A stretch of DNA of 64,000 nucleotides from an uncultured cyanobacterium. GTDB taxonomy: Bacteria > Cyanobacteriota > Cyanobacteriia > Cyanobacteriales > CAWCAG01. The number at the start of each line of letters is the position of its first letter. The first letter of the stretch is position 1. The notes beneath the pieces are model-generated. The model did not search any database. It had not been told where the DNA came from and saw only the letters and a list, made by a program, of their open reading frames with translations. Location: positions 256,001-320,000 of the forward strand of contig CAWDOD010000011.1 in the NCBI GenBank assembly GCA_963803805.1, written 5' to 3'. A program made the position numbers and the translations under genes. Positions 52,200 to 64,000 of the stretch are shown piece by piece.

Positions 52200-54530
52200 G
52201 TGAAAACTTTGCGACTACAACATCTACCTCTAGTTAGGAAAATCTGGCAGCGTCTGGAGACAATGCCTTTACCACCAACAGAGGAATCTATCCTGCTACG
52301 GATATTAGTCCAGGGATTGGTAGCTGTAGGCATTGTCGCTACAGATGTGGCTGCGGGTACTCAATTAAGCTTGTGGGCTATACCTTTAAGCTGTGTCGGT
52401 GCTATTTGGAGTTGGTATCGACGGCGTAAGCGCAATGTTATGGTGAAGTTTCTTCTTGCCATAGGTATGTTACTAGCTATGGCTAGTTTTTTTGGGAATT
52501 TATTTTCTAGTTTGAATGATACTCGCCTTGTCCTAGCTGAGTTATTAATTCAACTACAAGTTCTTCACAGTTTTGATTTACCTCGGCGTAAAGATTTAGG
52601 CTACTCCATGATTATTGGGTTAATCCTTTTGGGGGTAGCTGGTACGGTTTCGCAAACTTTAGCTTTTGCACCCCTGTTATTTCTGTTCTTAGTTTTTGCT
52701 CTACCTGTTTTAGTTTTAGATTATCGTTCCCGTTTGGGGTTAGTTGAAGAAAAAAGGAGGAGAAAAAACTCTAGTGAACAGGATTTAAGGGAAGGGGATA
52801 GAAAACTGTCTCTTTCTAGTCTTAAGTCTTCCCTTTTTGTTATTCTTTCTCCCCAACGTTGGCTTTTTTTGCTAGGAACTATTTTGGTTTTAGGGTTGAC
52901 TATTTTTCTTCTGATGCCTCGTTTTCCTGGTTATCAACTCCAAAGTTTTCCTGTTAGTGCGCCAATAGATTTAGATAACAAAAGTTTTGAGCAACAAAAT
53001 CAGGGTATTGTTAATCCTGGTTATGGCAACCAAGAAAATGGTGACGGAGAAGGTAGCGGTAGTGGCGAAACAGAAGCCCCAGGAGAGATAGATGATACCT
53101 TTTACTATGGCTTTAATAGTCAGATTAACCAAAATCTCCGGGGAGAAATGACTCCCAAGGTGGTTTTGCGGATACGCTCCCAAGCACCAGGTTTTTGGCG
53201 GGTAATGGCATTTGATCGCTACACTGGCAAAGGGTGGAAAGTTTCTCGTGAAGATAAGTTAATTCAAATTGAGCGCCCTAGCTGGTCTTATCAATTTTAT
53301 CTTTCTCCTCCCCGTACCACAGCACCAACTAAGCGAGTAATTCAAAGTTATACAACAGTTACTGAGTTACCTAATATTATTCCGGCTTTAACTTATCCTA
53401 AGCAACTTTATTTTCCTGCCAAACAAGTTGCTATAGATTTAGAAGGGAGTTTGCGATCGCCCCTTGGTTTAGTAGAAGGATTGACCTATACAGTAATTTC
53501 AGAAGTACCTATTCGCGATCGCAGTTTATTGAGGAAGGCTTCAGAGGAATATCCAGAGAAGATCGAAGAGTATTATTTACAAATTCCTCCAGAAATCCTA
53601 ACTAAGGTGAAGCAGCGAACAGAAGAACTTTTAGCTAAATCCCCTAATCCCCTAACTTCCAGTTACGAAAAAGCCCTTTATCTTGCCCAAGCTATCAAGC
53701 AAAGTTATGAAGTTAAAACTGATTTACCCTTTTTTGAGAAAGATGAGGATTTAGTAGAGGCTTTTCTATTTCGCCATCAAGGAGGCTACCCAGATCATTT
53801 TGCTACCGCCTATACTATGATGCTTCGTTCGGTAGGTATACCTGCCCGGTTAGAAGTCGGTTTCGCCACTGGACAGTTTAACCCTTTTACTGGACTTTAT
53901 GTGGTTAAAAATACAGATGCCCATGCTTTAACAGAAGTTTATTTTGGTGATTACGGTTGGTATGCTTTTGATCCTATTCCTGGCCATGAAATAGTCCCTC
54001 CTTCTATTGAAGAAGTGGAAACCTTCAGTGCATTACAACAATTTTGGCGTTTGATTGCTGGTTGGTTGCCTTCCCCTGTGACTAGCTTTTTGGGGGAAGT
54101 TTGGCAGCAAGTTATTGTGAGGATAATTCGCTCTATTGCTTGGTTGTGGAGATTTTTCTCTAGTACTTGGCTTGGCTTGTTTACAGGTATTATGGCCGCT
54201 ATTGGCTTTAGTTTTCTGACTTGGTTAGGTTGGAATCAACTGCAAGCTTGGGCCCGTCGTCGTTGGCTAGCTAAGTTAGCGCCTATGGAAAGATTGTATC
54301 AACAAATGCTCAAATTATCTGCTGAGCAAGGATATCCTAAAAACCCTGCCCAAACCCCTTTGGAATATGCCCAAAGTGTACGGGGAAATTTGCAAAGTGT
54401 TAGGGCTGATATCATTGAAGAGATTTGTCAAGGATATGTAGGCTGGCGTTATGGGGATAAGACACAAAATGTTTCCTATTTGCAAGGGCAGCTACAAGCA
54501 TTACGGCGTAGTCTCAGAAGAATCAATTAA
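52200..54530 (+). CDS. TgpA-like transglutaminase-domain membrane protein (DUF3488 / TGc / DUF4129)
   Basis: FWRVMAFDRYTG, DHFATA...LRSVGIPARL..GF, AHALTEVYF..YGW..FDP and QTPLEYA. Confidence 0.85.
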   Translation: MKTLRLQHLPLVRKIWQRLETMPLPPTEESILLRILVQGLVAVGIVATDVAAGTQLSLWAIPLSCVGAIWSWYRRRKRNVMVKFLLAIGMLLAMASFFGNLFSSLNDTRLVLAELLIQLQVLHSFDLPRRKDLGYSMIIGLILLGVAGTVSQTLAFAPLLFLFLVFALPVLVLDYRSRLGLVEEKRRRKNSSEQDLREGDRKLSLSSLKSSLFVILSPQRWLFLLGTILVLGLTIFLLMPRFPGYQLQSFPVSAPIDLDNKSFEQQNQGIVNPGYGNQENGDGEGSGSGETEAPGEIDDTFYYGFNSQINQNLRGEMTPKVVLRIRSQAPGFWRVMAFDRYTGKGWKVSREDKLIQIERPSWSYQFYLSPPRTTAPTKRVIQSYTTVTELPNIIPALTYPKQLYFPAKQVAIDLEGSLRSPLGLVEGLTYTVISEVPIRDRSLLRKASEEYPEKIEEYYLQIPPEILTKVKQRTEELLAKSPNPLTSSYEKALYLAQAIKQSYEVKTDLPFFEKDEDLVEAFLFRHQGGYPDHFATAYTMMLRSVGIPARLEVGFATGQFNPFTGLYVVKNTDAHALTEVYFGDYGWYAFDPIPGHEIVPPSIEEVETFSALQQFWRLIAGWLPSPVTSFLGEVWQQVIVRIIRSIAWLWRFFSSTWLGLFTGIMAAIGFSFLTWLGWNQLQAWARRRWLAKLAPMERLYQQMLKLSAEQGYPKNPAQTPLEYAQSVRGNLQSVRADIIEEICQGYVGWRYGDKTQNVSYLQGQLQALRRSLRRIN

Positions 54531-55453
54531 TCAGGTACATTGACAGCACCATTTTTCTGCAAATATTGTTTCTGTTCTTCTGTCAATCCTTTAGCATCAG
54601 TAAAGATTGCTTCTCTTACCTCAGCATCTGTTAAATCTACTTCAGCTAAAACACTATTTTCAAAGTTAGCATTCTGTAAATTAGCACTTCTGAAATTAAT
54701 TTGTGATAAAGTTGCTCTTTCTAATTTAGCATCAAATAAAGAGGCAGAGGTAAAGTCAATTTGTGTTAAAGTGCTGCCTTGTAACATGGCTTCTGATAAT
54801 TCTGCTTGTTGTAAAATTACCGCTCTCAAATTAGCTTCAGCTAAGTTAGCAGCAAAAAGATTTGCTTGAGTTAAATCAGCTTCAGCTAAGTAAGCATGAA
54901 TAAAGGTAGCCGCTTCTAAATTAGCTTCGCGCCAAATTGTTGCCAATAAATTTGCTCCCTCAAACCGAGCTTTTCTTAAGTTAGCATGGCTAAAATTAGC
55001 TTGGGGAAAGTTAGACATACTCAAATTTGCTTTGCTTAACTCAGCATTACTAAAGTTAGCGGCTTTTCCTTTTGCTTCACGAAAATCTGCTCTTTCTAAA
55101 ACCGCAGCCGTTGCCGCAATATTATCTAAAATAGCGCCGTAAAAGTTAGCAGATTTTGCTTGAATATGGTTCATAATAGCGCCACTAAAATCAGCATTGG
55201 TTAAAGTAGCTTCGTTAAAGTTAGCACCAGCTAAGGAAGCCTGACTAAAGTTAGCAAAAATCAAAGTAGCTTCAGAGAAATTAGTTTCTTGACAAGAGGT
55301 TTTAGTGAAGTTAGATCGACGCAAGTAAGCTTTACTAAAATCGCCTCGGTCTAGGTTTTTACCTTCAAGATCAACTTTACTTAGTTCTGCTTTAGCTAAG
55401 GATTCTCCTTTTTGGATTTTGGCAACTATTTCACTGGCAGTAAATAGAGTCAT
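54527..55453 (-). CDS. Pentapeptide repeat protein
   Basis: Continuous A(N/D/E)(L/F)xx repeats. Confidence 0.9.
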   Translation of the reverse strand: MTLFTASEIVAKIQKGESLAKAELSKVDLEGKNLDRGDFSKAYLRRSNFTKTSCQETNFSEATLIFANFSQASLAGANFNEATLTNADFSGAIMNHIQAKSANFYGAILDNIAATAAVLERADFREAKGKAANFSNAELSKANLSMSNFPQANFSHANLRKARFEGANLLATIWREANLEAATFIHAYLAEADLTQANLFAANLAEANLRAVILQQAELSEAMLQGSTLTQIDFTSASLFDAKLERATLSQINFRSANLQNANFENSVLAEVDLTDAEVREAIFTDAKGLTEEQKQYLQKNGAVNVPD

Positions 55454-55477: not shown

Positions 55478-56557
55478 TTATTTATTTAACTTATAGTAAT
55501 CTTGCAACCACTGAGTTAAGTCGCTATTAGTTTGAAAATTCCACATAGCTTCTCCTAAATCTTCTAATTCTTGAGCTTCTAAGGCTTCAATAGAAGTAAT
55601 AGCTTCTGAGGTTAATTCTCCAAAACGGCGCTCAATTTGCCGTAATAACAAGCTTCTTTCGCCTTCGATTTTTCCTTCTTCTAAACCTTGTTGCAATCCC
55701 TGTTGTAACCCTTCTTCTAAACCTTGTTGTAACCCTTCTTCTAATCCCTGTTGTAACCCTTCTTCTAATCCCTGTTGTAACCCTTCTTCTAATCCCTGTT
55801 GTAACCCTTCTTCTAATCCCTGTTGTAACCCTTCTTCTAAACCTTGTTTTTTAGCAAAAATCATTGCACCTTGACGATCAGCAATGAACATTTCCTGTTT
55901 ATGTAATTTCTCTAATTCTTCTACACTCAAGCTAGCTTGATTAGCAATGTTCAAGGCTTTTTCTATTTGTGGTATCTGTCCCATTTTTTCTGGTATTACT
56001 TCTAAGTTTTGCGCTTCTTTAATAAAGTAGATCCATTTATCCGTAACACTTTCTAAATCTTCTAGTTTTTTGTTAAACTTAGGCAATTCTACAAATACTA
56101 GCTTTAATTCCTCTTCCTGATAAGCAATTTTTTCTTCTTCTTCTTGAAAATGGAAACGAGTAATTACTTTCTGGCTTGAAGAAAATAAAGTAAAGTCAGT
56201 GATAGTTAAAGCAATTACTGGTGCAAGATCAGAATATCCCTGTCCAGATTTAAGTTGATTACCGTAGGTTTTGCAGAGGTTGTAAACTACTCGTTTTTTA
56301 AAAGCCTCTACGTTCCAGATTTGCATCTCGATGATGACGCTTGTGCCATCATTTAATACTGCTTTAACGTCAAGATAACTATCTTTTAAATCAACGATAT
56401 CACTAGGGTTATAGGGGTCAATAATTTTCAAATCTTCAATGACAGCATCACCGGAGTAAATGGTGGCATTGAGGAAGGAAATGAGAATATCTTTACTTTC
56501 ATCGGAACTAAATATTTTTTTGAAAGCAAAGTCAGTTTTAGGTGAGATGAATCTCAT
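55478..56557 (-). CDS. Rpn-family PD-(D/E)XK nuclease (putative transposase) with repeat linker and DUF4351-like tail
   Basis: MRFISPKTDFAFKKIF, LDVKA, IIEMQ, FVELPKF and DKWIYF; tail LLLRQIERRFG...LE.LGEA...F....DL..WL. Confidence 0.9.
   Translation of the reverse strand: MRFISPKTDFAFKKIFSSDESKDILISFLNATIYSGDAVIEDLKIIDPYNPSDIVDLKDSYLDVKAVLNDGTSVIIEMQIWNVEAFKKRVVYNLCKTYGNQLKSGQGYSDLAPVIALTITDFTLFSSSQKVITRFHFQEEEEKIAYQEEELKLVFVELPKFNKKLEDLESVTDKWIYFIKEAQNLEVIPEKMGQIPQIEKALNIANQASLSVEELEKLHKQEMFIADRQGAMIFAKKQGLEEGLQQGLEEGLQQGLEEGLQQGLEEGLQQGLEEGLQQGLEEGLQQGLQQGLEEGKIEGERSLLLRQIERRFGELTSEAITSIEALEAQELEDLGEAMWNFQTNSDLTQWLQDYYKLNK
55673..55846 (-). repeat. 24-bp coding tandem repeat (GLEEGLQQ x6 plus partial units)
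   Basis: Plus-strand unit CCCTGTTGTAACCCTTCTTCTAAT. Confidence 0.92.
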
Positions 56558-56809: not shown

Positions 56810-57259
56810 TTAAGTTGTTTTGACTAAGACAGAACCCTCTTCTTCTTTCACTTCATAGGTTGCTAAAGGTTCTTGGGCAGGGCCTTTCAGTACTTCTCCA
56901 TCGGGGGCAAACTGGGAACCATGACAAGGGCAAACTAAATTTTTAGCCTCAGCATTCCACTCTACAGTACAACCTTGATGGGTACACATTGGGCTAACAG
57001 CAGCTAGACTGTTATCTTCGTTGCGGACTACGATTAAGTCGTTTTTCTTTTGTAAAAGGTAGCCTGCTTCATCTAATTCAGTGGTTGTACCAGCGACAAT
57101 AAAGCCATCTTCGCGAGGGCCTTCAGCAGCAGGAGTTTCTTCCGGGGAGGTTTCCGTTTCTGCTTCTTCGGCTTCAGGACTACAAGCTGCGATCGCAACG
57201 GGTAAAGAACTAGCTAAAATACCAACACTAACCCAACCTAAAAATTTACGACGTTCCAT
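56810..57259 (-). CDS. Small Rieske [2Fe-2S] protein, Tat-exported lipoprotein (PetC3-like)
   Basis: MERRKFL Tat motif, IAAC lipobox, CTHQGC and CPCHGS. Confidence 0.88.
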   Translation of the reverse strand: MERRKFLGWVSVGILASSLPVAIAACSPEAEEAETETSPEETPAAEGPREDGFIVAGTTTELDEAGYLLQKKNDLIVVRNEDNSLAAVSPMCTHQGCTVEWNAEAKNLVCPCHGSQFAPDGEVLKGPAQEPLATYEVKEEEGSVLVKTT

Positions 57260-57285
57260 AAGTGTTTCTCCTCAATTTTAAGTTA

Positions 57286-59004
57286 TTAATTATCAACCTT
57301 CAACTTTAACTGTCCCATCATATCTGTTTCTGCTGGTTTTTTACGATTGAACCAACCCTTATGACGTACTGTTGCTGCCAAGACAAAGAGTAAATCTAAA
57401 CCCACTAAACCAGCTACCATTAACTCCGAACCCCCCGTACTGAAACCGTAGCTGTGCAAACCAGTACCCAGAAAAAAGTTTACTCCATACCAGGCCATTA
57501 ATACAGCATTGAAACATACTACACTAGCTACTGCCATACCAAAGTTAGTTAGCCAACCAATGAGACGGCCATGTAAGGGGACAATGTAGGAGATTAAGGC
57601 AATTAAGGCCCAGGTTTCTTTTGGGTCCCAACCCCAGAAACGTCCCCAGGAGAAATGCGCCCAGATGCCGCCGAGAATTACCCCTGCGGTGAGAAGTAGG
57701 ACTCCTACTTGTAAAACGCCATAATTCCATTTAGAGAGGTTTTTAATTTTTTCTGTAGCTTGGGGGGCGAAGAGATAGTAGCCCAGGATGATGTGACCTA
57801 AGCCTAAAGCGAGGGCAAAGCTGGCATAGCTTAGGGTGATAGTGGGGACGTGGATGCTTAACCAGAAGTTATCCCGCAAAACCGGAACTAAGGGTTTGAT
57901 GCTAGGATCAAGGACAGCAGGGAGACTGTCGGCTAAAACTAAGCAAACAACGGATAGGGGGGCTGCTGCCAGGAGGTAGTATTTGGCACGATAAATTAGT
58001 TCAAAAACTAAAGCGATCGCCGCTAAACCAAAACCGACCCAAATTACCGACTCGTACATATTGGTAACAGGAGGCCGGCCGGCAATTTGCATTCTTTCCC
58101 AAAAACCGTAGCTATGAATGGCAATACCAACTACAAAGATGCCTATTGTTCCCCAGTAGAAGTTGAATTTCTCTACCCCTACTACTAATAGCATGATTGC
58201 AAAGGCGATCGCATATAGTCGCCAAGCTTTGGCAAAGGGATGTAAGCCGTAGAAGTTAACTTCCCGTTGCAGGAGGGCGTGATTAGGATAAATTTCTGGA
58301 CTAAGGGCGCGGAGTTTATCTTGTAATTTGCCACCAAGTTCACCCAAAACTTGGTAATGTTCAGGGCTAGAGAGATAAACTTGTTTCAACATTTCATAGT
58401 CAGCAAGTACCGGGGCAACCTGTTGGGCTTGGTAATATTGGGTTGCTTGCTTCAAACCTACCCACTTTCCTTTAATATCGCTGGGGTGGGGTACTAAAGG
58501 TAATTTGTTTACCCCCACTGTGTCAACCAGCAAAGCCAATCTATCTTCAATGGTTAAAGCTTCCCTCTCATCCCTAGTTAAGTCGAGGTTGTCAGCTTCC
58601 TTTTGCCTTGCATCGAGGATAACGGAACCTAAACTGGAACTAATTAACTCTTGGAAAGTAAAATACTTACGTTCAGGATCTAGTCCTACTTTCTCTTTGA
58701 GGGGACGGTAGCTAAAGAGAATAAAGGGTTCTTGATTCCAATCTCGGTCATTAAACCACAAAGAAAGGTAGGTTTGCAGATAACCTAATGTTTCCCCATT
58801 TTTGGGGCGATAGTTGGCACGACCATGAATTTGCGCTACAGTTTCCTGGGCTACTGTGGCTAAAGGCTTTTTACGTCCATCTAGTTGCACTGCCATAGTT
58901 TCTAGGGATTCCCAAGAGGAGGCTTGAAACTGGCTAAAGGGAATCAGGATTAAGAAGATGCCTAAACAGAGTCCGATGATGAATTTGAGTGGTTTGTTAA
59001 TCAT
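57286..59004 (-). CDS. ccsA: Large cytochrome c synthase CcsA (system II)
   Basis: WGRFWGWDPKETW (WWD motif), WLSIHV, GLHSYG and N-terminal DGRKKP; start taken as MINKP. Confidence 0.85.
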   Translation of the reverse strand: MINKPLKFIIGLCLGIFLILIPFSQFQASSWESLETMAVQLDGRKKPLATVAQETVAQIHGRANYRPKNGETLGYLQTYLSLWFNDRDWNQEPFILFSYRPLKEKVGLDPERKYFTFQELISSSLGSVILDARQKEADNLDLTRDEREALTIEDRLALLVDTVGVNKLPLVPHPSDIKGKWVGLKQATQYYQAQQVAPVLADYEMLKQVYLSSPEHYQVLGELGGKLQDKLRALSPEIYPNHALLQREVNFYGLHPFAKAWRLYAIAFAIMLLVVGVEKFNFYWGTIGIFVVGIAIHSYGFWERMQIAGRPPVTNMYESVIWVGFGLAAIALVFELIYRAKYYLLAAAPLSVVCLVLADSLPAVLDPSIKPLVPVLRDNFWLSIHVPTITLSYASFALALGLGHIILGYYLFAPQATEKIKNLSKWNYGVLQVGVLLLTAGVILGGIWAHFSWGRFWGWDPKETWALIALISYIVPLHGRLIGWLTNFGMAVASVVCFNAVLMAWYGVNFFLGTGLHSYGFSTGGSELMVAGLVGLDLLFVLAATVRHKGWFNRKKPAETDMMGQLKLKVDN

Positions 59005-59070
59005 ATTTATTGTAGGTTGCAGGTATTTGGAATTGGGGGAATAGCGTCTAGCAAAAGTAATAAGTTGTAG

Positions 59071-59125
59071 GGGCGATCCGTTTCCCAAATATTGTTGATA
59101 AATCAAGGTTTGAATTGGATCGCCC
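59071..59125. repeat. REP-like inverted repeat between ccsB and ccsA
   Basis: GGGCGATCC ... GGATCGCCC, preceded by GTAG; a similar element lies at 44526-44579. Confidence 0.55.
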
Positions 59126-59140
59126 TTAATCTCCAGTCCC

Positions 59141-60922
59141 TCAATTGACGGTTAGCAATGGCTTGGTTTGTGCTTCTGTTGGAGTTGGGTTTGGCTGTTC
59201 GGTTAGGGCAGGTTTGGGTTTTAGTTTTTTAACTAATACTGGGCCGTAGAACATTACGGCAATGCCTATAACTACTAAGGCTGAACCTATCCAAGTTAAA
59301 GCTGTTACCCAAGCAGGTTCTCGCTTTACCTGTAGGGTTGACTGGCGTAAATCTCCGGGATTCCAGGAGGCTTGGGCAATTTTCCAGCCTTGATACCAAG
59401 TGGGATGATTCATCCAGACTTTGCGTTGTTGAGTTAAGCCAGTTTGAGGATCTTGCAGGCGGATTTGACTTGTCCACATGGCTACAGATTCGCTGCCTTC
59501 ATTCCGTTCCACAATAAAGTCTTCAAGCTGAATATTAAAGGGAAGTTGCAAGACTTTCGGGCTAAAGGCTGCAAAAATATCCCCTGCTGTATCATTGATA
59601 GTGGTTGCTTCTCCCCAAGGCAACCAGGTTTGCGTTCCAGTTTCCGTTCCTACCAACAGGGCAGGAACCCCTTCAAAGTTAGGATTATCAACAGGTACAA
59701 CTTGACGCTTAAGCTGGGCTTGAGGCATAAATTCTTCTAAGGTGATTTGGAAATCTGCCCAACCGGGAGTGATAACTTGACCAACTTCTAAGGAACCAGA
59801 TTTGAAACCACGGGAAGATTGCGCACTGTAAAAAAGTTGCTTGTCTGGGGTGGTTATGACACGGAAATAGTCTTCTGGGGTGGGAGGTTGAACGGTGTAG
59901 CTGATTTTAATTCCTTGGATTGCTTCCCCGGAAACTAAGCTACGAATCGGTTCAAAGTTATTGCCAAAAACAAACCAACGTTCTGTTCCCGTTGCGGTAG
60001 TTAGTTCTAACTGTACAGCAGGGTTGTTGAAGTTTTGGGAAGCGGTGGCTGGTTGGTTGTTGCTATTTAATCTAAAGTCTGGCCAGAAGTCAACCACTTT
60101 AACTTTGAGGTTGTTAGCAAGTTTGCTTGTGTTGCCAATACTTGTTTTAACATCTAAATCTAATTCTTTATCCCCTGCAACTATTTGTAAGTCACCCCAG
60201 GGGCTAGAATCTTTATTTTGGGGTGTGTTTAAATACTTTTGTAGTTCTGCTTCACTAGCAACAGCAATAATCTCTAACTGGGCTGGGCCAATTGTCATCT
60301 GACTGTAACTAGCGGGGGCAACGGCTAAGGAACGTTCTACCGTTTGTCCCATGCGATCGCTAGTTAAACTCAATCTTACTCCAGGATTAACAACCGTTGC
60401 TCCTGGGATAAAGCTAGCGGTTTGCATGGTATTTTCACTATAACTAAGTAAGGAAAGACCTGCAAAGCTTTGAGGATAAACTTTACCGCTAGCTTTAACA
60501 AATACATCGGTTTGTTGTATTTGCCCTTGGGGATTCATTACTTCCAGTAATTCCCCTTCAACACGAATCTGATTATTGGGGCCACTGTCAGTCCGCAACA
60601 GAGTTAAACCTTCTAGTCCTAAATGAATTACGGCTGCTGAACCAGCGATGATAACAATTAAGCCTAAATGAGTTAAAGCAAAACCTACTTTGCGCGGTCC
60701 TCGCCAGGGATAGCGACTTAAAGCAGAAACTCCTAAGTTTATGGCTAAAAGAAACATCAAAGCCCCAAACCAAGGACTTTTATAAACGGCTTGTTGTACG
60801 GTAGCAGAACCAACTTCTGATTCATAAAATGTTGCACCAATCAAAATAGCAGTAATGGCACATAAGAGAGGAACTGCTAACTTAATAGAACCAAGAAAAC
60901 TAAAAGATTTTTTATTCATCAC
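59141..60922 (-). CDS. ccsB: ResB/CcsB-like cytochrome c biogenesis protein
   Basis: S.KLA..L, Y.SPWF...NL, GFALTHLG, MNHP..YQGW...Q.SW and C-terminal TM. Confidence 0.75.
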   Translation of the reverse strand: MMNKKSFSFLGSIKLAVPLLCAITAILIGATFYESEVGSATVQQAVYKSPWFGALMFLLAINLGVSALSRYPWRGPRKVGFALTHLGLIVIIAGSAAVIHLGLEGLTLLRTDSGPNNQIRVEGELLEVMNPQGQIQQTDVFVKASGKVYPQSFAGLSLLSYSENTMQTASFIPGATVVNPGVRLSLTSDRMGQTVERSLAVAPASYSQMTIGPAQLEIIAVASEAELQKYLNTPQNKDSSPWGDLQIVAGDKELDLDVKTSIGNTSKLANNLKVKVVDFWPDFRLNSNNQPATASQNFNNPAVQLELTTATGTERWFVFGNNFEPIRSLVSGEAIQGIKISYTVQPPTPEDYFRVITTPDKQLFYSAQSSRGFKSGSLEVGQVITPGWADFQITLEEFMPQAQLKRQVVPVDNPNFEGVPALLVGTETGTQTWLPWGEATTINDTAGDIFAAFSPKVLQLPFNIQLEDFIVERNEGSESVAMWTSQIRLQDPQTGLTQQRKVWMNHPTWYQGWKIAQASWNPGDLRQSTLQVKREPAWVTALTWIGSALVVIGIAVMFYGPVLVKKLKPKPALTEQPNPTPTEAQTKPLLTVN

Positions 60923-60925
60923 TTA

Positions 60926-61465
60926 TTACCTATTACCTGCCGTTTTCCTATATCTAAAGTGAGTAACATTAGCAATTGTTTCCCGTAAAGATTGGCTAGA
61001 TTCACCATATAAATCCAACCATTCATAAAAAGTTAGTTCTCCCCCTAAATAGGTATCAGGATTTTCTGCACCTTGTAACATGATTTTACATATTAAAGTG
61101 TAAGCATCTAACCAATTTTGTTCTAATTCTTGTGTCCATTGTGAACCTAAATAAGTAGCGAAAGTTTCTAATAAGGCTTTACCAACTAAAGGATAATGTT
61201 CTGCTACTGTACCAACGGTAACGTGGTGCGCTCCTAAACTTTTTAAAGCTAAAGTTAGTTCTTCAAGGTTACGGAGATTTTCCACAATTAAACCTAAAGA
61301 AGCAACTAGTTTCTTCTCTTGGGCTTCAATACTAACATTTTTAAACATAGGTTCTAGTTCTGGATTGTTGCGAAAGAGATTTTCATAGAAGCTAGCAGAG
61401 AATTGTTGCATTTGAGGTTTAATTGCCTCAAAGGATTTTTCTAGAATTTGAGAATTTAAGGCCAT
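60926..61465 (-). CDS. Single-domain globin (flavohemoglobin-like) with C-terminal extension
   Basis: FYENLF..NPEL.PMF, Q.KKL, LGAHH...G....HYPLVG.ALL and W..AY. Confidence 0.88.
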   Translation of the reverse strand: MALNSQILEKSFEAIKPQMQQFSASFYENLFRNNPELEPMFKNVSIEAQEKKLVASLGLIVENLRNLEELTLALKSLGAHHVTVGTVAEHYPLVGKALLETFATYLGSQWTQELEQNWLDAYTLICKIMLQGAENPDTYLGGELTFYEWLDLYGESSQSLRETIANVTHFRYRKTAGNR

Positions 61466-61548
61466 TTTTAGTTATTAATTTATAAAAATGAAGATAGATT
61501 TTTAATAAGCTAAACAATTGAAACTATTAGCTAATCACCTATTACTTT

Positions 61549-62163
61549 TTACTGATAATAATAAGCCAGAAAAATATGAAATAACAACATCACCAGAAAA
61601 ACACTAACTAAAAGAATGTGAGTAGAAAGCCAAATTGCTCTTAGTTGGCGAATTAAAGTACCTTTAGGAACTCCCGGTAACTTTTTACCACTCTTGCTAA
61701 CAGGAACAGAAACCCAAGCAAAGTATTGGCGAGAAGATTCTAACACCCCAGTTTCGGCCACAACTCCCACTAAAGCAGAAAGAGTTACAGCAAAAAATAC
61801 CCATAAGAAAATAGCATTAAAATTGATTCCTGTCATACCAAAAGTGTGAATTAAAGTAACTCCTAAAAGAGCAACTCCTAAAAAAATATGTAGTCTACGC
61901 CATAACTGTATGGAACCAGGAACCTTTAACTTAACTACCCAACTTCTCCCTCTTTTTCTGGCTGTAAAAACCATTTCCAAAATGACAAAAACTAGGGCCG
62001 CATAACCCGTAATTTGTTTGTATAACTCTCCCTGTAAAACTTGCAAAAATTCAAAGGCTTGTTCCCGCAAAATTTCTACATAAATAGGACTCAAAGCGAA
62101 AGGTGCTAAAAGTGCTGCGGCAACTAAAGTGAGGATAATTAAGGTAATAAATTTAGGTTTCAT
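61549..62163 (-). CDS. Membrane protein with four TM histidines (cytochrome b-like)
   Basis: WRRLHIFLG, LIHT, WLSTHIL and LFHIF. Confidence 0.6.
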   Translation of the reverse strand: MKPKFITLIILTLVAAALLAPFALSPIYVEILREQAFEFLQVLQGELYKQITGYAALVFVILEMVFTARKRGRSWVVKLKVPGSIQLWRRLHIFLGVALLGVTLIHTFGMTGINFNAIFLWVFFAVTLSALVGVVAETGVLESSRQYFAWVSVPVSKSGKKLPGVPKGTLIRQLRAIWLSTHILLVSVFLVMLLFHIFLAYYYQ

Positions 62164-62345
62164 TGGTTTGTAGATTAGCTATTAGTTTCTCTACAAGGTT
62201 AGGAAATCAATGCTTTTATAATTAAGACAGGGGGCAAATTTGCCCCCTTTCCGGGTATCGGCGATCGCACTTTCGTCCTTGGCAGAGGATTATTTAATTA
62301 GCTGCAATAAGCCTACGGCAACGCTTTGCGAAGGCTGATTTTTGT

Positions 62346-63005
62346 TTAAGCATCTCCTAAAGGCAGGTTGATCATAATACCACCCATTACATCATCCATT
62401 TCAAAGGTTTTGTCAGGATAGCGCTCTTTATGAACCGGATGTTCGTTGTGACAGCTAACGCAAGCTTCTGCTACAGCTTTGTCAGGATAAAGGGCAGAGT
62501 AGTATTTTTGGCCAGCAATTTCTTGTTCTGCTTTGAAAGGTTCACCGGTTTCAACCACTTCATCCATGGCTTCTTTTTCAAAGTCGGACTTGGGTGCATG
62601 GTTGTCGTTGATATTCCAGGGAGAAATCAAACCATAGGTGAAATTCCCTTCTTCTGAAGCTATTTCTGCCCCTAAACGAAACATTTGCGCTGGTAAAGGT
62701 ATACCATCAGTTTGCTGCCAAGATTCTGTTGCTTCAGTGGTAACTACACCGTCAGCCTTTTCTTTACCCTCCAATGTCTTTAATCTATTCACAACGTGCT
62801 TTGTATAAGCAGTACGATCAGCTAATAGGACAGTGTGAATGTAGTCAACTACGGCTTCTGGGGCAATGCCACCAGCAGCCCCGGCAGTAGGCGTACCGCC
62901 ACCACCACTACAGGCAATAGCTGTGATACAAATACTTGCTGCTAAGGCAAATAGGGCCATGGTTTTGGCTTTCATTCTCGGTAGCCAAGAATTGGCTGTT
63001 AACAT
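62346..63005 (-). CDS. DUF3365/Tll0287-like monoheme c lipoprotein
   Basis: AIAC lipobox; LPAQMFR, N.P..DFE, ACVSCH and GGI.I. Confidence 0.8.
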   Translation of the reverse strand: MLTANSWLPRMKAKTMALFALAASICITAIACSGGGGTPTAGAAGGIAPEAVVDYIHTVLLADRTAYTKHVVNRLKTLEGKEKADGVVTTEATESWQQTDGIPLPAQMFRLGAEIASEEGNFTYGLISPWNINDNHAPKSDFEKEAMDEVVETGEPFKAEQEIAGQKYYSALYPDKAVAEACVSCHNEHPVHKERYPDKTFEMDDVMGGIMINLPLGDA

Positions 63006-63062
63006 TTTGTGTTCTCCTTGTTGTAAATTGAAATAGTCAAATAAGTTTCAGCTTGTAAATTC

Positions 63063-63857
63063 TTACTTTGCTGAGGTTTCACTCGAACCTTGATCCCCCA
63101 AAGCGCGAACCATATCTAGGGTTTCTAATTCTTGATTCGGTGGTCGAGCAAAATTTTCTTCTACTAACTCATCGTCGAAGATGCTGTTGTAGGAATATTC
63201 CATACCGTGACAGTTCATACAAACCTCCTTAACTGCGCGATCACGAGGTAAAAGAGTATAGGTATTGTTGTGGTTGACATGGAAGGTTGTACCAAACTCC
63301 TGGCGCGGTAAATGGCAGGTGGCACAGGTGACTGACTCGGTACTAGGCCTTGCTAAATCACCTTCGGCAACGAATAATTTAGCGTGTTGAGAGTTTTTGT
63401 AGTTGAGGGAGTGAGTGTCATTGTGGCAAGTTAAACAAGAATCTACTGCTGCTGTGTAGGTATCAACAGAATGAACATTGTGACAAGTGTTGCAGTTCAT
63501 TTCCTTATCCAAGGCTGACTCCTTCATCGGTAAGTTAGCCATAGCTGGGGTTAAAGGTGAAAGTCCTTCCCCTAAACGAATGCCATGTTTGCCTAACAAA
63601 AAAGTTTCTACTTGGTTTTCATGGCAACTAGTGCAACTTTCATAGTTAGGTTGTGCCACAAATGCTTTGGTTTTGTCATCTTGGTGACAACTAGAACAGT
63701 TAACGTCTGCTAAAGCATGGGCGCTATCTGCCCAAAGTTCATTAATCTCCTTTAGTTCAGCCTGAGATACATTCTGCGCGGTAGCTGCAAAGGGTAGCAG
63801 CAACAAACTAACAACAAACAAGCAAACAACTAACCAAACTCTCTTCTGACTTTGCAT
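63063..63857 (-). CDS. Exported hexaheme cytochrome c
   Basis: Signal peptide; six CxxCH motifs: CSSCH, CTSCH, CNTCH, CLTCH, CATCH, CMNCH. Confidence 0.9.
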   Translation of the reverse strand: MQSQKRVWLVVCLFVVSLLLLPFAATAQNVSQAELKEINELWADSAHALADVNCSSCHQDDKTKAFVAQPNYESCTSCHENQVETFLLGKHGIRLGEGLSPLTPAMANLPMKESALDKEMNCNTCHNVHSVDTYTAAVDSCLTCHNDTHSLNYKNSQHAKLFVAEGDLARPSTESVTCATCHLPRQEFGTTFHVNHNNTYTLLPRDRAVKEVCMNCHGMEYSYNSIFDDELVEENFARPPNQELETLDMVRALGDQGSSETSAK

Positions 63858-64000
63858 TACCCACCTCCCAAAAACTCTTGACTTAAATCCGGAGTGGGGG
63901 CTTTATCTAGCTTAGTTTCCACTTCTAATTTAGGTAATGCAGGTTTAGGTAACATTGCCGGCTGACCTAAATTATCCTTCAAGAAACCAGTAGAAATTGA
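63857..64000 (-). CDS. 3' end of an upstream gene, translationally coupled (TAATG) to the hexaheme gene
   Basis: Open frame from the window edge: SISTGFLKDNLGQPAMLPKPALPKL...EFLGGG*; its stop overlaps ATG 63857. Confidence 0.65.
   Translation of the reverse strand, partial: SISTGFLKDNLGQPAMLPKPALPKLEVETKLDKAPTPDLSQEFLGGG

Follow-up and report, generated by a model that had tools for sequence, protein, structure and literature searches.

The gene cluster considered here, a run of co-oriented minus-strand redox genes at the end of a 64,000-nucleotide stretch of cyanobacterial DNA (the window; positions 1-64,000, G000:C11:256001-320000), has a close described counterpart in the narK-bjgb-flp-nasC system of Bradyrhizobium, where a single-domain globin and a separate reductase module belong to a nitrate-assimilation regulon (NasS-NasT) and Bjgb-Flp handles the NO made during nitrate use (PMC4724949). 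Bjgb-Flp is wholly cytoplasmic, whereas the present cluster encodes a putative trans-membrane protein with four histidines, twelve exported c-haems, a dedicated cytochrome c synthase pair (CcsBA) and a Rieske protein; furthermore, its cyanobacterial forms lack a flavoprotein and use NtcA/NtcB boxes. By analogy, the cluster could be viewed as a nitrate-linked NO module of the Bjgb type to which a trans-membrane multihaem arm, so far undescribed, has been added.

Multihaem cytochromes typify organisms that respire anaerobically rather than oxygenic phototrophs, and haem cores of the HAO/NrfA type belong to dissimilatory nitrogen metabolism; here an HAO-type core stands under an assimilatory-nitrate promoter signature and, in other phyla, beside NasT and nitrate transporters. 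The HAO/octahaem proteins (Kustc0458, Nitrosomonas HAO) and NrfA/octahaem nitrite reductase (ONR) share with it collinear haem motifs and D-x-H and Y-x-x-S-x-H segments, but our chain lacks their catalytic haem motif and any CXXCK, has a much shorter C-terminus, and carries five plus six haems. NirB, the NADH-dependent assimilatory nitrite reductase, contributes its input half to a fusion with the membrane protein in other bacteria, in which the membrane domain replaces the sirohaem-[4Fe-4S] half, whereas cyanobacteria lack the module entirely. The membrane protein itself recalls cytochrome b561 and ferric-reductase-type dihaem domains in being a predicted helical bundle with two H-x13-H pairs. 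Finally, the Tll0287/sCache_heme family consists of stand-alone PF11845 domains with a CXXCH motif (bioRxiv 10.64898/2026.02.01.703092), of which our lipoprotein forms a distinct subfamily; the consulted parts of that preprint do not mention this operon, and we found no published description of the cluster in the open-access literature.

The evidence set out below makes a link of the cluster to nitrate/nitrite regulation very probable. That its products form a nitrate/nitrite-induced outward trans-membrane electron conduit for nitrogen-oxide handling is a proposal to which we give an even chance.

The first-pass annotation of the window had described a self-contained set of genes on one strand, in the order upstream ORF, hexahaem cytochrome c, monohaem lipoprotein, four-His membrane protein, globin, CcsB, CcsA and Tat Rieske lipoprotein. 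All eight open reading frames (ORFs) are found in that order (Table 1), and a Pfam search recognized Rieske, CcsA, ResB, globin, Tll0287-like and multihaem domains among them, the four-His protein giving no match. The described TAATG coupling is also present, the TAA of the upstream ORF overlapping the ATG of the hexahaem gene. The cluster is, however, incomplete inside the window: reading past the window end completed a pentahaem cytochrome gene (the upstream ORF) and added glbA, which encodes a membrane-anchored globin, and the cluster ends there. The catalytic subunit that had been suspected further upstream is absent from the adjacent ~20 kb, as are NOS, molybdoenzyme and Crp/Fnr genes; the ~570 bp 5' of glbA are non-coding and are followed by an ORF of 81 aa with no Pfam match and by genes whose translations we take to be those of housekeeping proteins.

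To place the cluster in its phylum, one genome per species was surveyed, and the best 80 of 98 hexahaem relatives were kept as the cyanobacterial loci counted hereafter. Hexahaem homologues are 58-74% identical and syntenic, so the cluster is not a chance array. Of the 66 loci whose flanks are long enough, 64 keep the order glbA-5haem-6haem-Tll-4His, which supports the view that co-conserved genes encode an extracytoplasmic electron-transfer chain, so far uncharacterised, with CcsBA of its own; within the fetched flanks, CcsB or CcsA occurs in 32 of 40 full-length loci and Rieske in 24 of 40. A thioredoxin-like gene, missing at our locus, is present at 55 loci, mostly directly after the core, and other recurrent neighbours are ChaN-like haem-binding genes (12 loci) and pentapeptide genes. 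The distribution of the cluster is sparse and patchy: 3 of 400 genomes sampled from the phylum and 3 of 30 relatives have it, and many carriers come from mats, sediments and symbioses, as judged by record title. A same-genus genome, G401 (98% complete), has at the same slot (L170:5784-9418) neither multihaems nor CcsBA; it carries an NtcA-boxed di-globin gene, two other genes and a Rieske gene. This tandem globin contains membrane segments, its pentapeptide tail is apparently frameshifted, and its promoter shows an NtcA box and no NtcB box; the cassette also encodes a 109-aa protein resembling one found beside the cluster in five loci, and a 303-aa membrane protein, presumably bestrophin-like.

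The promoter upstream of glbA provides the first line of evidence for nitrogen control. We extracted 62 leaders (this genome and 61 of the 80 loci), which collapsed to 42 sequence-independent groups. In 48 of the 62, an exact GTA-N8-TAC is found no further than 500 bp from glbA (shuffle mean 6.2, maximum 14), and in 25 a -10 element follows it at 21-23 nt (shuffle 0.5); among the sequence-independent leaders, 29 of 42 possess it (shuffle mean 3.7). An unbiased dyad search of the 42 leaders returned the NtcA dyad together with a second palindrome; measured from centre to centre, this palindrome precedes the NtcA dyad by 50.5-53.5 bp in 27 of 42 leaders, and another peak falls at 29.5-30.5. In Anabaena, the NtcB box ATGC-N7-GCAT-N7-ATGC-N7-GCAT spans -100 to -64 and the NtcA centre is at -41.5 (bioRxiv 2022.10.10.511513), a geometry that predicts spacings of exactly 51.5 and 29.5; the peaks observed, 51.5/52.5 and 29.5/30.5 bp, fit the -93 and -71 halves of that box. 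Indeed, ATGC-N7-GCAT with at most one mismatch occurs 36-39 nt before the NtcA box in 28 of 42 leaders (shuffle 0.02, maximum 1), so that boxes near -93 and -41.5 are present, as in the NtcA-NtcB regulon. Against a low-oxygen function, ChlR and FNR patterns were not enriched (0 and 2 of 62 leaders).

The strict composite occurs at four sites in the 5.3-Mb genome (Table 1), of which only those of nirA and of this cluster remain when a -10 element is required; the predicted NtcB regulon is thereby extended beyond the nir operon. The HEAT-porin-LysR-TrpD-like operon is one that we take to be nirB...ntcB-cnaT, although no model named the LysR protein, and this LysR is a candidate for NtcB itself. 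The site before the 566-aa kinase gene, which we presume to be ABC1/UbiB-like, is possibly a further NtcB target, or a chance occurrence. In 7 of the 80 loci, glbA is preceded by a divergently oriented orthologue of the HEAT gene, which there fills the slot that nirA occupies in model strains.

The second line of evidence comes from other bacteria, some of them named as planctomycetes and gammaproteobacteria, where homologues of 463-569 aa occur; the 20 that were aligned are fusions of both cytochromes, with 11 haems. Of 451 metagenome loci confirmed for this fused protein, we examined the best 80, several of which stem from the same studies and are therefore not independent. The partners of the 11-haem gene are an FAD protein (75 loci), a Tll0287-like protein (71), a globin (48) and a NasT-type ANTAR regulator (24). 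The FAD protein corresponds to the NADH/FAD and BFD [2Fe-2S] half of NirB (positions 1-467 of 794, E 1e-136) and is fused to the four-His membrane domain, both H-x13-H pairs being retained in 56 of 56 full-length fusions; the first reading of the chain as quinol-linked is not supported, the fused module being of the NADH type. Nitrate-assimilation genes (NasT-type, nitrate ABC components, nitrate/nitrite reductases, NrtP) accompany 34 of the 80 loci and 27 of the 37 loci of at least 12 kb. Upstream of the FAD gene, tandem ANTAR-like hairpins are present in 10 of 51 cases versus 0.96 expected. Since 7 of the 80 loci contain NirA-like genes, the module accompanies, and does not replace, nitrite reductase. 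Two unrelated nitrate-responsive systems, NtcA/NtcB and NasT, therefore converge on this one cluster.

No ORF of the genome apart from those of the two cytochromes has more than two CXXCH motifs, and a single further one has two. The pentahaem protein has an N-terminal membrane segment, four CXXCH motifs, one CX4CH motif and five further invariant histidines, and is the counterpart of the N-terminal half of the 11-haem protein; the hexahaem protein, in which the six CXXCH motifs first reported were counted again, has six further invariant histidines and corresponds to the C-terminal half. In an alignment of 78 pentahaems, 80 hexahaems and 72 fusions (150-152 sequences), all 11 haem motifs end in His, none being CXXCK, and exactly 11 further histidines are invariant in both the split and the fused proteins. 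The pentahaem and hexahaem proteins are mutually homologous (HHalign probability 97.7); at the sequence level, the five-plus-six arrangement is an internal duplication.

The best match of the hexahaem protein in the Protein Data Bank (PDB) is the HAO-like Kuenenia protein Kustc0458 (6h5l; residues 46-171 versus 121-265, E 2e-4), with collinear haem motifs, the D-x-H and Y-x-x-S-x-H segments included. The catalytic-haem CXXCH of 6h5l, between the third and fifth haems (haem 4 of HAO), faces non-Cys residues in the hexahaem protein. When a fused homologue was modelled (pLDDT 86), the fold search retrieved HAO-family structures first, and the top ten matches of the model are all of the HAO family or the multihaem protein 4qo5. 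By contrast, the eight haems per chain and the long C-terminal helical domain of HAO are absent, the chain ending ~45 aa past the last haem; the five-coordinate CXXCK-type catalytic haem of NrfA and octahaem nitrite reductase is absent as well, and the NrfA model gave no match to the hexahaem protein. Because a collinear HAO core is present without the catalytic haem motif, the multihaem chain is, on alignments and models, HAO-derived yet neither HAO nor NrfA. The HAO-like pair Asp147-x-His149 is invariant, and His149 may be free. Met208, found in 95% of the cyanobacterial and 100% of the fused homologues and replaced by Ala here (hexahaem residue 208, window 63234-63236), may be functionally relevant.

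The lipoprotein matches PF11845 with 70.9 bits (cut-off 24.1) and has, as first described, a single CXXCH (C182, C185 and H186 are invariant) and a lipobox-like IAC. Met108 is invariant in 61 of 61 aligned sequences, as are His189 and many polar residues, and the same alignment contains no conserved Cys besides those of the lipobox and CXXCH, so the distal Cys ligand of a Tll0287-type His/Cys haem is missing; the relationship to Tll0287 (5b82) is remote (E 0.31). Nor were sulfur-oxidation genes recurrent among the neighbour clusters annotated. Among the substrates first considered, sulfur species are thus disfavoured and nitrogen oxides are the most likely. The sequence features make the Tll0287-like subunit the best candidate for the terminal site.

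In the four-His protein, H92, H106, H182 and H196 are invariant and lie in predicted helices of a helical-bundle model (pLDDT 89). Within its family, weak Pfam matches to DUF4405 (23 of 63) and Ni_hydr_CYTB (7 of 63) yield no significant assignment; the protein is predicted, from sequence and model, to be a dihaem-b trans-membrane conduit.

Both globins are of the single-domain flavohaemoglobin type (the Vgb/Cgb/Bjgb kind): PDB matches have E values of 1e-23 to 1e-11, and four aligned globins present FY, LF/MF, Q and G-x-x-H, which we take for TyrB10, PheCD1, GlnE7 and HisF8. The gene first called a globin does match PF00042; this soluble form, glbB, is accessory (14 of 80 loci). GlbA contains 1, 2, 3 or 5 tandem globin domains in 37, 35, 7 and 1 of 83 sequences, respectively (3 partial), and ends in a hydrophobic anchor in most relatives shown. 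The flavohaemoglobin (Hmp) model matches with its globin part alone (to position 135 of 399), below cut-off, and an identity as Hmp is ruled out, there being no fused FAD/NAD reductase. The globins would presumably act as NO dioxygenases.

A ResB domain and a CcsA with a WWD motif (WGRFWGWDPKE) identify the maturation genes as a System II cytochrome c synthase (CcsBA/ResBC); as reported at first, CcsB begins 3 bp past glbB. The claim of an own maturation system holds in that the pair is dedicated and linked to the cluster; it is, however, a second copy, since a housekeeping CcsA is encoded on contig C3. The CcsA start is more likely ATG 59004 than TTG 59106. RRKF, IAAC, CTHQGC and CPCHGS motifs bear out the Tat Rieske lipoprotein.

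Expression was assessed from published oxygen data for Acaryochloris marina MBIC11017 (our locus L044), a cultured strain, with calls resting on fold change only (PMC5295598). Under control, microoxic and hyperoxic conditions, the globin gene AM1_4406 gave 109, 42 and 215 (log2 -1.4, +1.0), the Tll-like gene AM1_4409 416, 70 and 1567 (log2 -2.6, +1.9) and the leader transcript AM1_4405 10120, 1755 and 8134; glnN behaved similarly (251, 67 and 532; log2 -1.9, +1.1), whereas true low-oxygen genes (acsF, hemN and a low-oxygen Rieske gene) rose 4-7 log2 under microoxia. A comparison of white with far-red light shows AM1_4402, 4403, 4405, 4406 and 4409 rising together with nrtP and nirA, and glnA falling (PMC11633204). 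The cluster is thus expressed in A. marina and is no low-oxygen operon, contrary to the function under low oxygen first proposed.

Two further observations concern this locus. The stretch that separates the NtcA promoter from the globin gene gives a ~200-nt transcript (L044:7860-8054, AM1_4405 region) that is ~90 times as abundant as the globin mRNA (10120 versus 109), folds moderately (z -2.05) and is kept in close kin only; it suggests attenuation or a small RNA. In addition, AM1_4406 and AM1_4409 have consecutive protein accessions in a published table (PMC11633204), so that the two intact multihaem ORFs between them (L044:9222-10711) seemingly have no protein record, an annotation gap that may explain why the multihaems were overlooked.

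The conduit scheme builds on the observed gene set, synteny, fusions, haem and ligand motifs, promoter boxes and Acaryochloris oxygen response; from these we infer haem binding by the membrane protein, a location in plasma membrane and periplasm, the outward direction, the substrate and the catalytic site. Electrons would leave the cytoplasm from NADH via the NirB half in other bacteria or from ferredoxin in cyanobacteria, as for NarB and NirA, a near-invariant R69-K70-R71 patch being the putative [2Fe-2S] docking site. They would cross the membrane on two b-haems of the four-His protein and run along the 11 c-haems of the HAO-derived chain, and the Cache-fold haem of the Tll0287-like subunit would pass them to nitrite or NO on the outer side. 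NO that enters the cytoplasm would be converted by the globins into nitrate, which could be assimilated again, as has been proposed for Bjgb (PMC4724949); CcsBA would supply the twelve c-haems, and the Rieske lipoprotein would be an optional carrier. An outward direction is favoured because the NADH-oxidising NirB half is fused to the membrane domain in other bacteria. Such a conduit would be a candidate for nitrite/NO handling in nitrate-using benthic cyanobacteria and a physiological setting for stand-alone sCache_heme proteins.

Several results weigh against this scheme. The 11 haems face 11 invariant non-motif histidines with no CXXCK, which leaves no evident open site, and one characterised stand-alone sCache_heme protein bound NO only weakly and behaved like a carrier. 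Structural scores are weak: the fused-homologue model matches 6h5l with E 3e-3 and TM 0.32, and a Foldseek search with the four-His model returned nothing at E<=1e-3 (top row cytochrome b561, E 0.47). No electron-input module is found in the cyanobacterial clusters, and no close FAD partner in this genome (best 24% identity). As for the nitrate link, 10 of the 37 long metagenome loci have no nitrate gene, and co-occurrence with narB (49 of 50 carriers versus 272 of 301 in the background) barely discriminates. G401 keeps its NtcA-boxed di-globin and Rieske genes, so the globin does not need the wire. In Acaryochloris, microoxia also lowers many photosynthesis genes, neither nirA nor nrtP is listed as changed by oxygen, and the fold-change basis of the calls applies here too (PMC5295598).

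The wire might instead run inward, periplasmic electrons from NO or hydroxylamine oxidation or from the Rieske protein re-reducing tethered globins, which would amount to a modular flavin-free NO dioxygenase. The cyanobacterial clusters do lack a flavin module and begin with a membrane-anchored, often tandem globin gene, oxidases occur among HAO-family proteins, and Acaryochloris expression goes up with oxygen. We nevertheless consider an inward wire unlikely: the fused NADH module of other bacteria could reduce a globin directly, which would make a 12-haem arm superfluous, in four 21-kb loci (L083, L084, L086 and L130) the wire is present and no globin is visible, and the globin of G401 persists without a wire.

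A bolder version of the outward scheme, which we regard as quite doubtful, is a new branch of nitrate assimilation, in which the NirB input half or ferredoxin, wired to the 11-haem chain and a catalytic Cache haem, would constitute a sirohaem-free periplasmic nitrite reductase; its NO product would be caught as nitrate by membrane-tethered tandem globins, or ammonium would be taken up directly. As a rival to the conduit, sirohaem-free assimilation in the periplasm (nitrite being reduced either to ammonium that is taken up or to NO that enters the cell and is trapped as nitrate by anchored globins) seems decidedly unlikely. The NirB input half with its sirohaem half replaced by a membrane domain, the NtcB/NasT control, the invariance of Asp147-x-His149 and the tandem globins predicted on the inner membrane face all suit it, but canonical NirA is intact in this genome and the NirA-like genes of the metagenome loci speak against a replacement, the catalytic HAO haem motif is missing, and the NO route would presumably cost extra electrons per N.

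Iron demand goes up with nitrate assimilation, and a redox valve or extracellular electron export (e.g. iron reduction), merely co-regulated with nitrate use, would agree with this, with the His-to-haem count of an all-bis-His wire and with the ChaN-like genes; it is very improbable in view of the absence of a recurrent outer-membrane porin-cytochrome partner from the cyanobacterial loci, and it leaves the globin and the conserved Cache pocket unexplained. Least probable is a quinol-linked low-oxygen respiratory or sulfur-oxidising chain, which the mat, sediment and symbiotic origin of many carriers and the proposal of Tll0287 itself as a micro-aerobic sensor or H2S-oxidation subunit might recommend, but which is at odds with the lower microoxic expression in Acaryochloris, the missing Cys ligand, the NADH-module fusion and the nitrogen-type promoter.

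Table 1. Features of the cluster, its promoter and its surroundings (plain numbers are window positions)
Feature	Coordinates	Strand	Remarks
308-aa pentapeptide-repeat protein gene	54527..55453	-	a ~307-aa pentapeptide protein adjoins the cluster in many relatives
PD-(D/E)XK / DUF4351 gene	55478-56557		between Rieske and pentapeptide genes; long GLEEGLQQ tandem repeat
Tat/lipoprotein Rieske [2Fe-2S] protein	56810..57259	-	motifs in text
Long CcsA/ResC-type cytochrome c synthase	57286..59004	-	572 aa
ResB/CcsB-type cytochrome c synthase subunit	59141..60922	-	cluster-linked copy
glbB, soluble single-domain globin	60926..61465	-	C-terminal extension of ~45 aa
Four-His membrane protein	61549..62163	-	two H-x13-H pairs
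GC-rich 8-bp stem-loop	62229..62248	-	between Tll0287-like and membrane-protein genes
Tll0287-like (sCache_heme) monohaem lipoprotein	62346..63005	-	Pfam, CXXCH, lipobox
Hexahaem cytochrome c	63063..63857	-	264 aa, signal peptide-like N-terminus
Pentahaem cytochrome c, 3' end	63857..64000	-	whole gene G000:C11:319857-320501 = L001:8858-9502, 214 aa
glbA, membrane-anchored single-domain globin	L001:9512-10072, past window end	-	186 aa, C-terminal membrane anchor
NtcA box GTA-N8-TAC	L001:10443-10430	-	TATATT 22 nt further down
NtcB-type box ATGC-N7-GCAT	L001:10496-10482	-	upstream of glbA
Composite site, this cluster			glbA leader
Composite site, nirA-nrtP-narB			in promoter
Composite site, HEAT-porin-LysR-TrpD-like operon			divergent from operon
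Composite site, putative ABC1/UbiB-like kinase gene	G000:C3:103474	-	perfect match, before 566-aa gene

Some minor features complete the picture. The stem-loop in Table 1 is possibly an mRNA stabiliser or a partial terminator. A 7-bp tandem repeat, TCAATTA, occupies L001:10555-10610, between the 81-aa ORF and the promoter, and similar repeats are dispersed in G401, where paralogues of the PD-(D/E)XK / DUF4351 gene are scattered as well. Finally, a third globin gene of this genome (L164:6074-7523, on G000:C3) encodes a 297-aa di-globin without an anchor; it is followed by a pentapeptide protein gene and is divergent from a gene that we take to encode a GAF-GGDEF-EAL-like protein.

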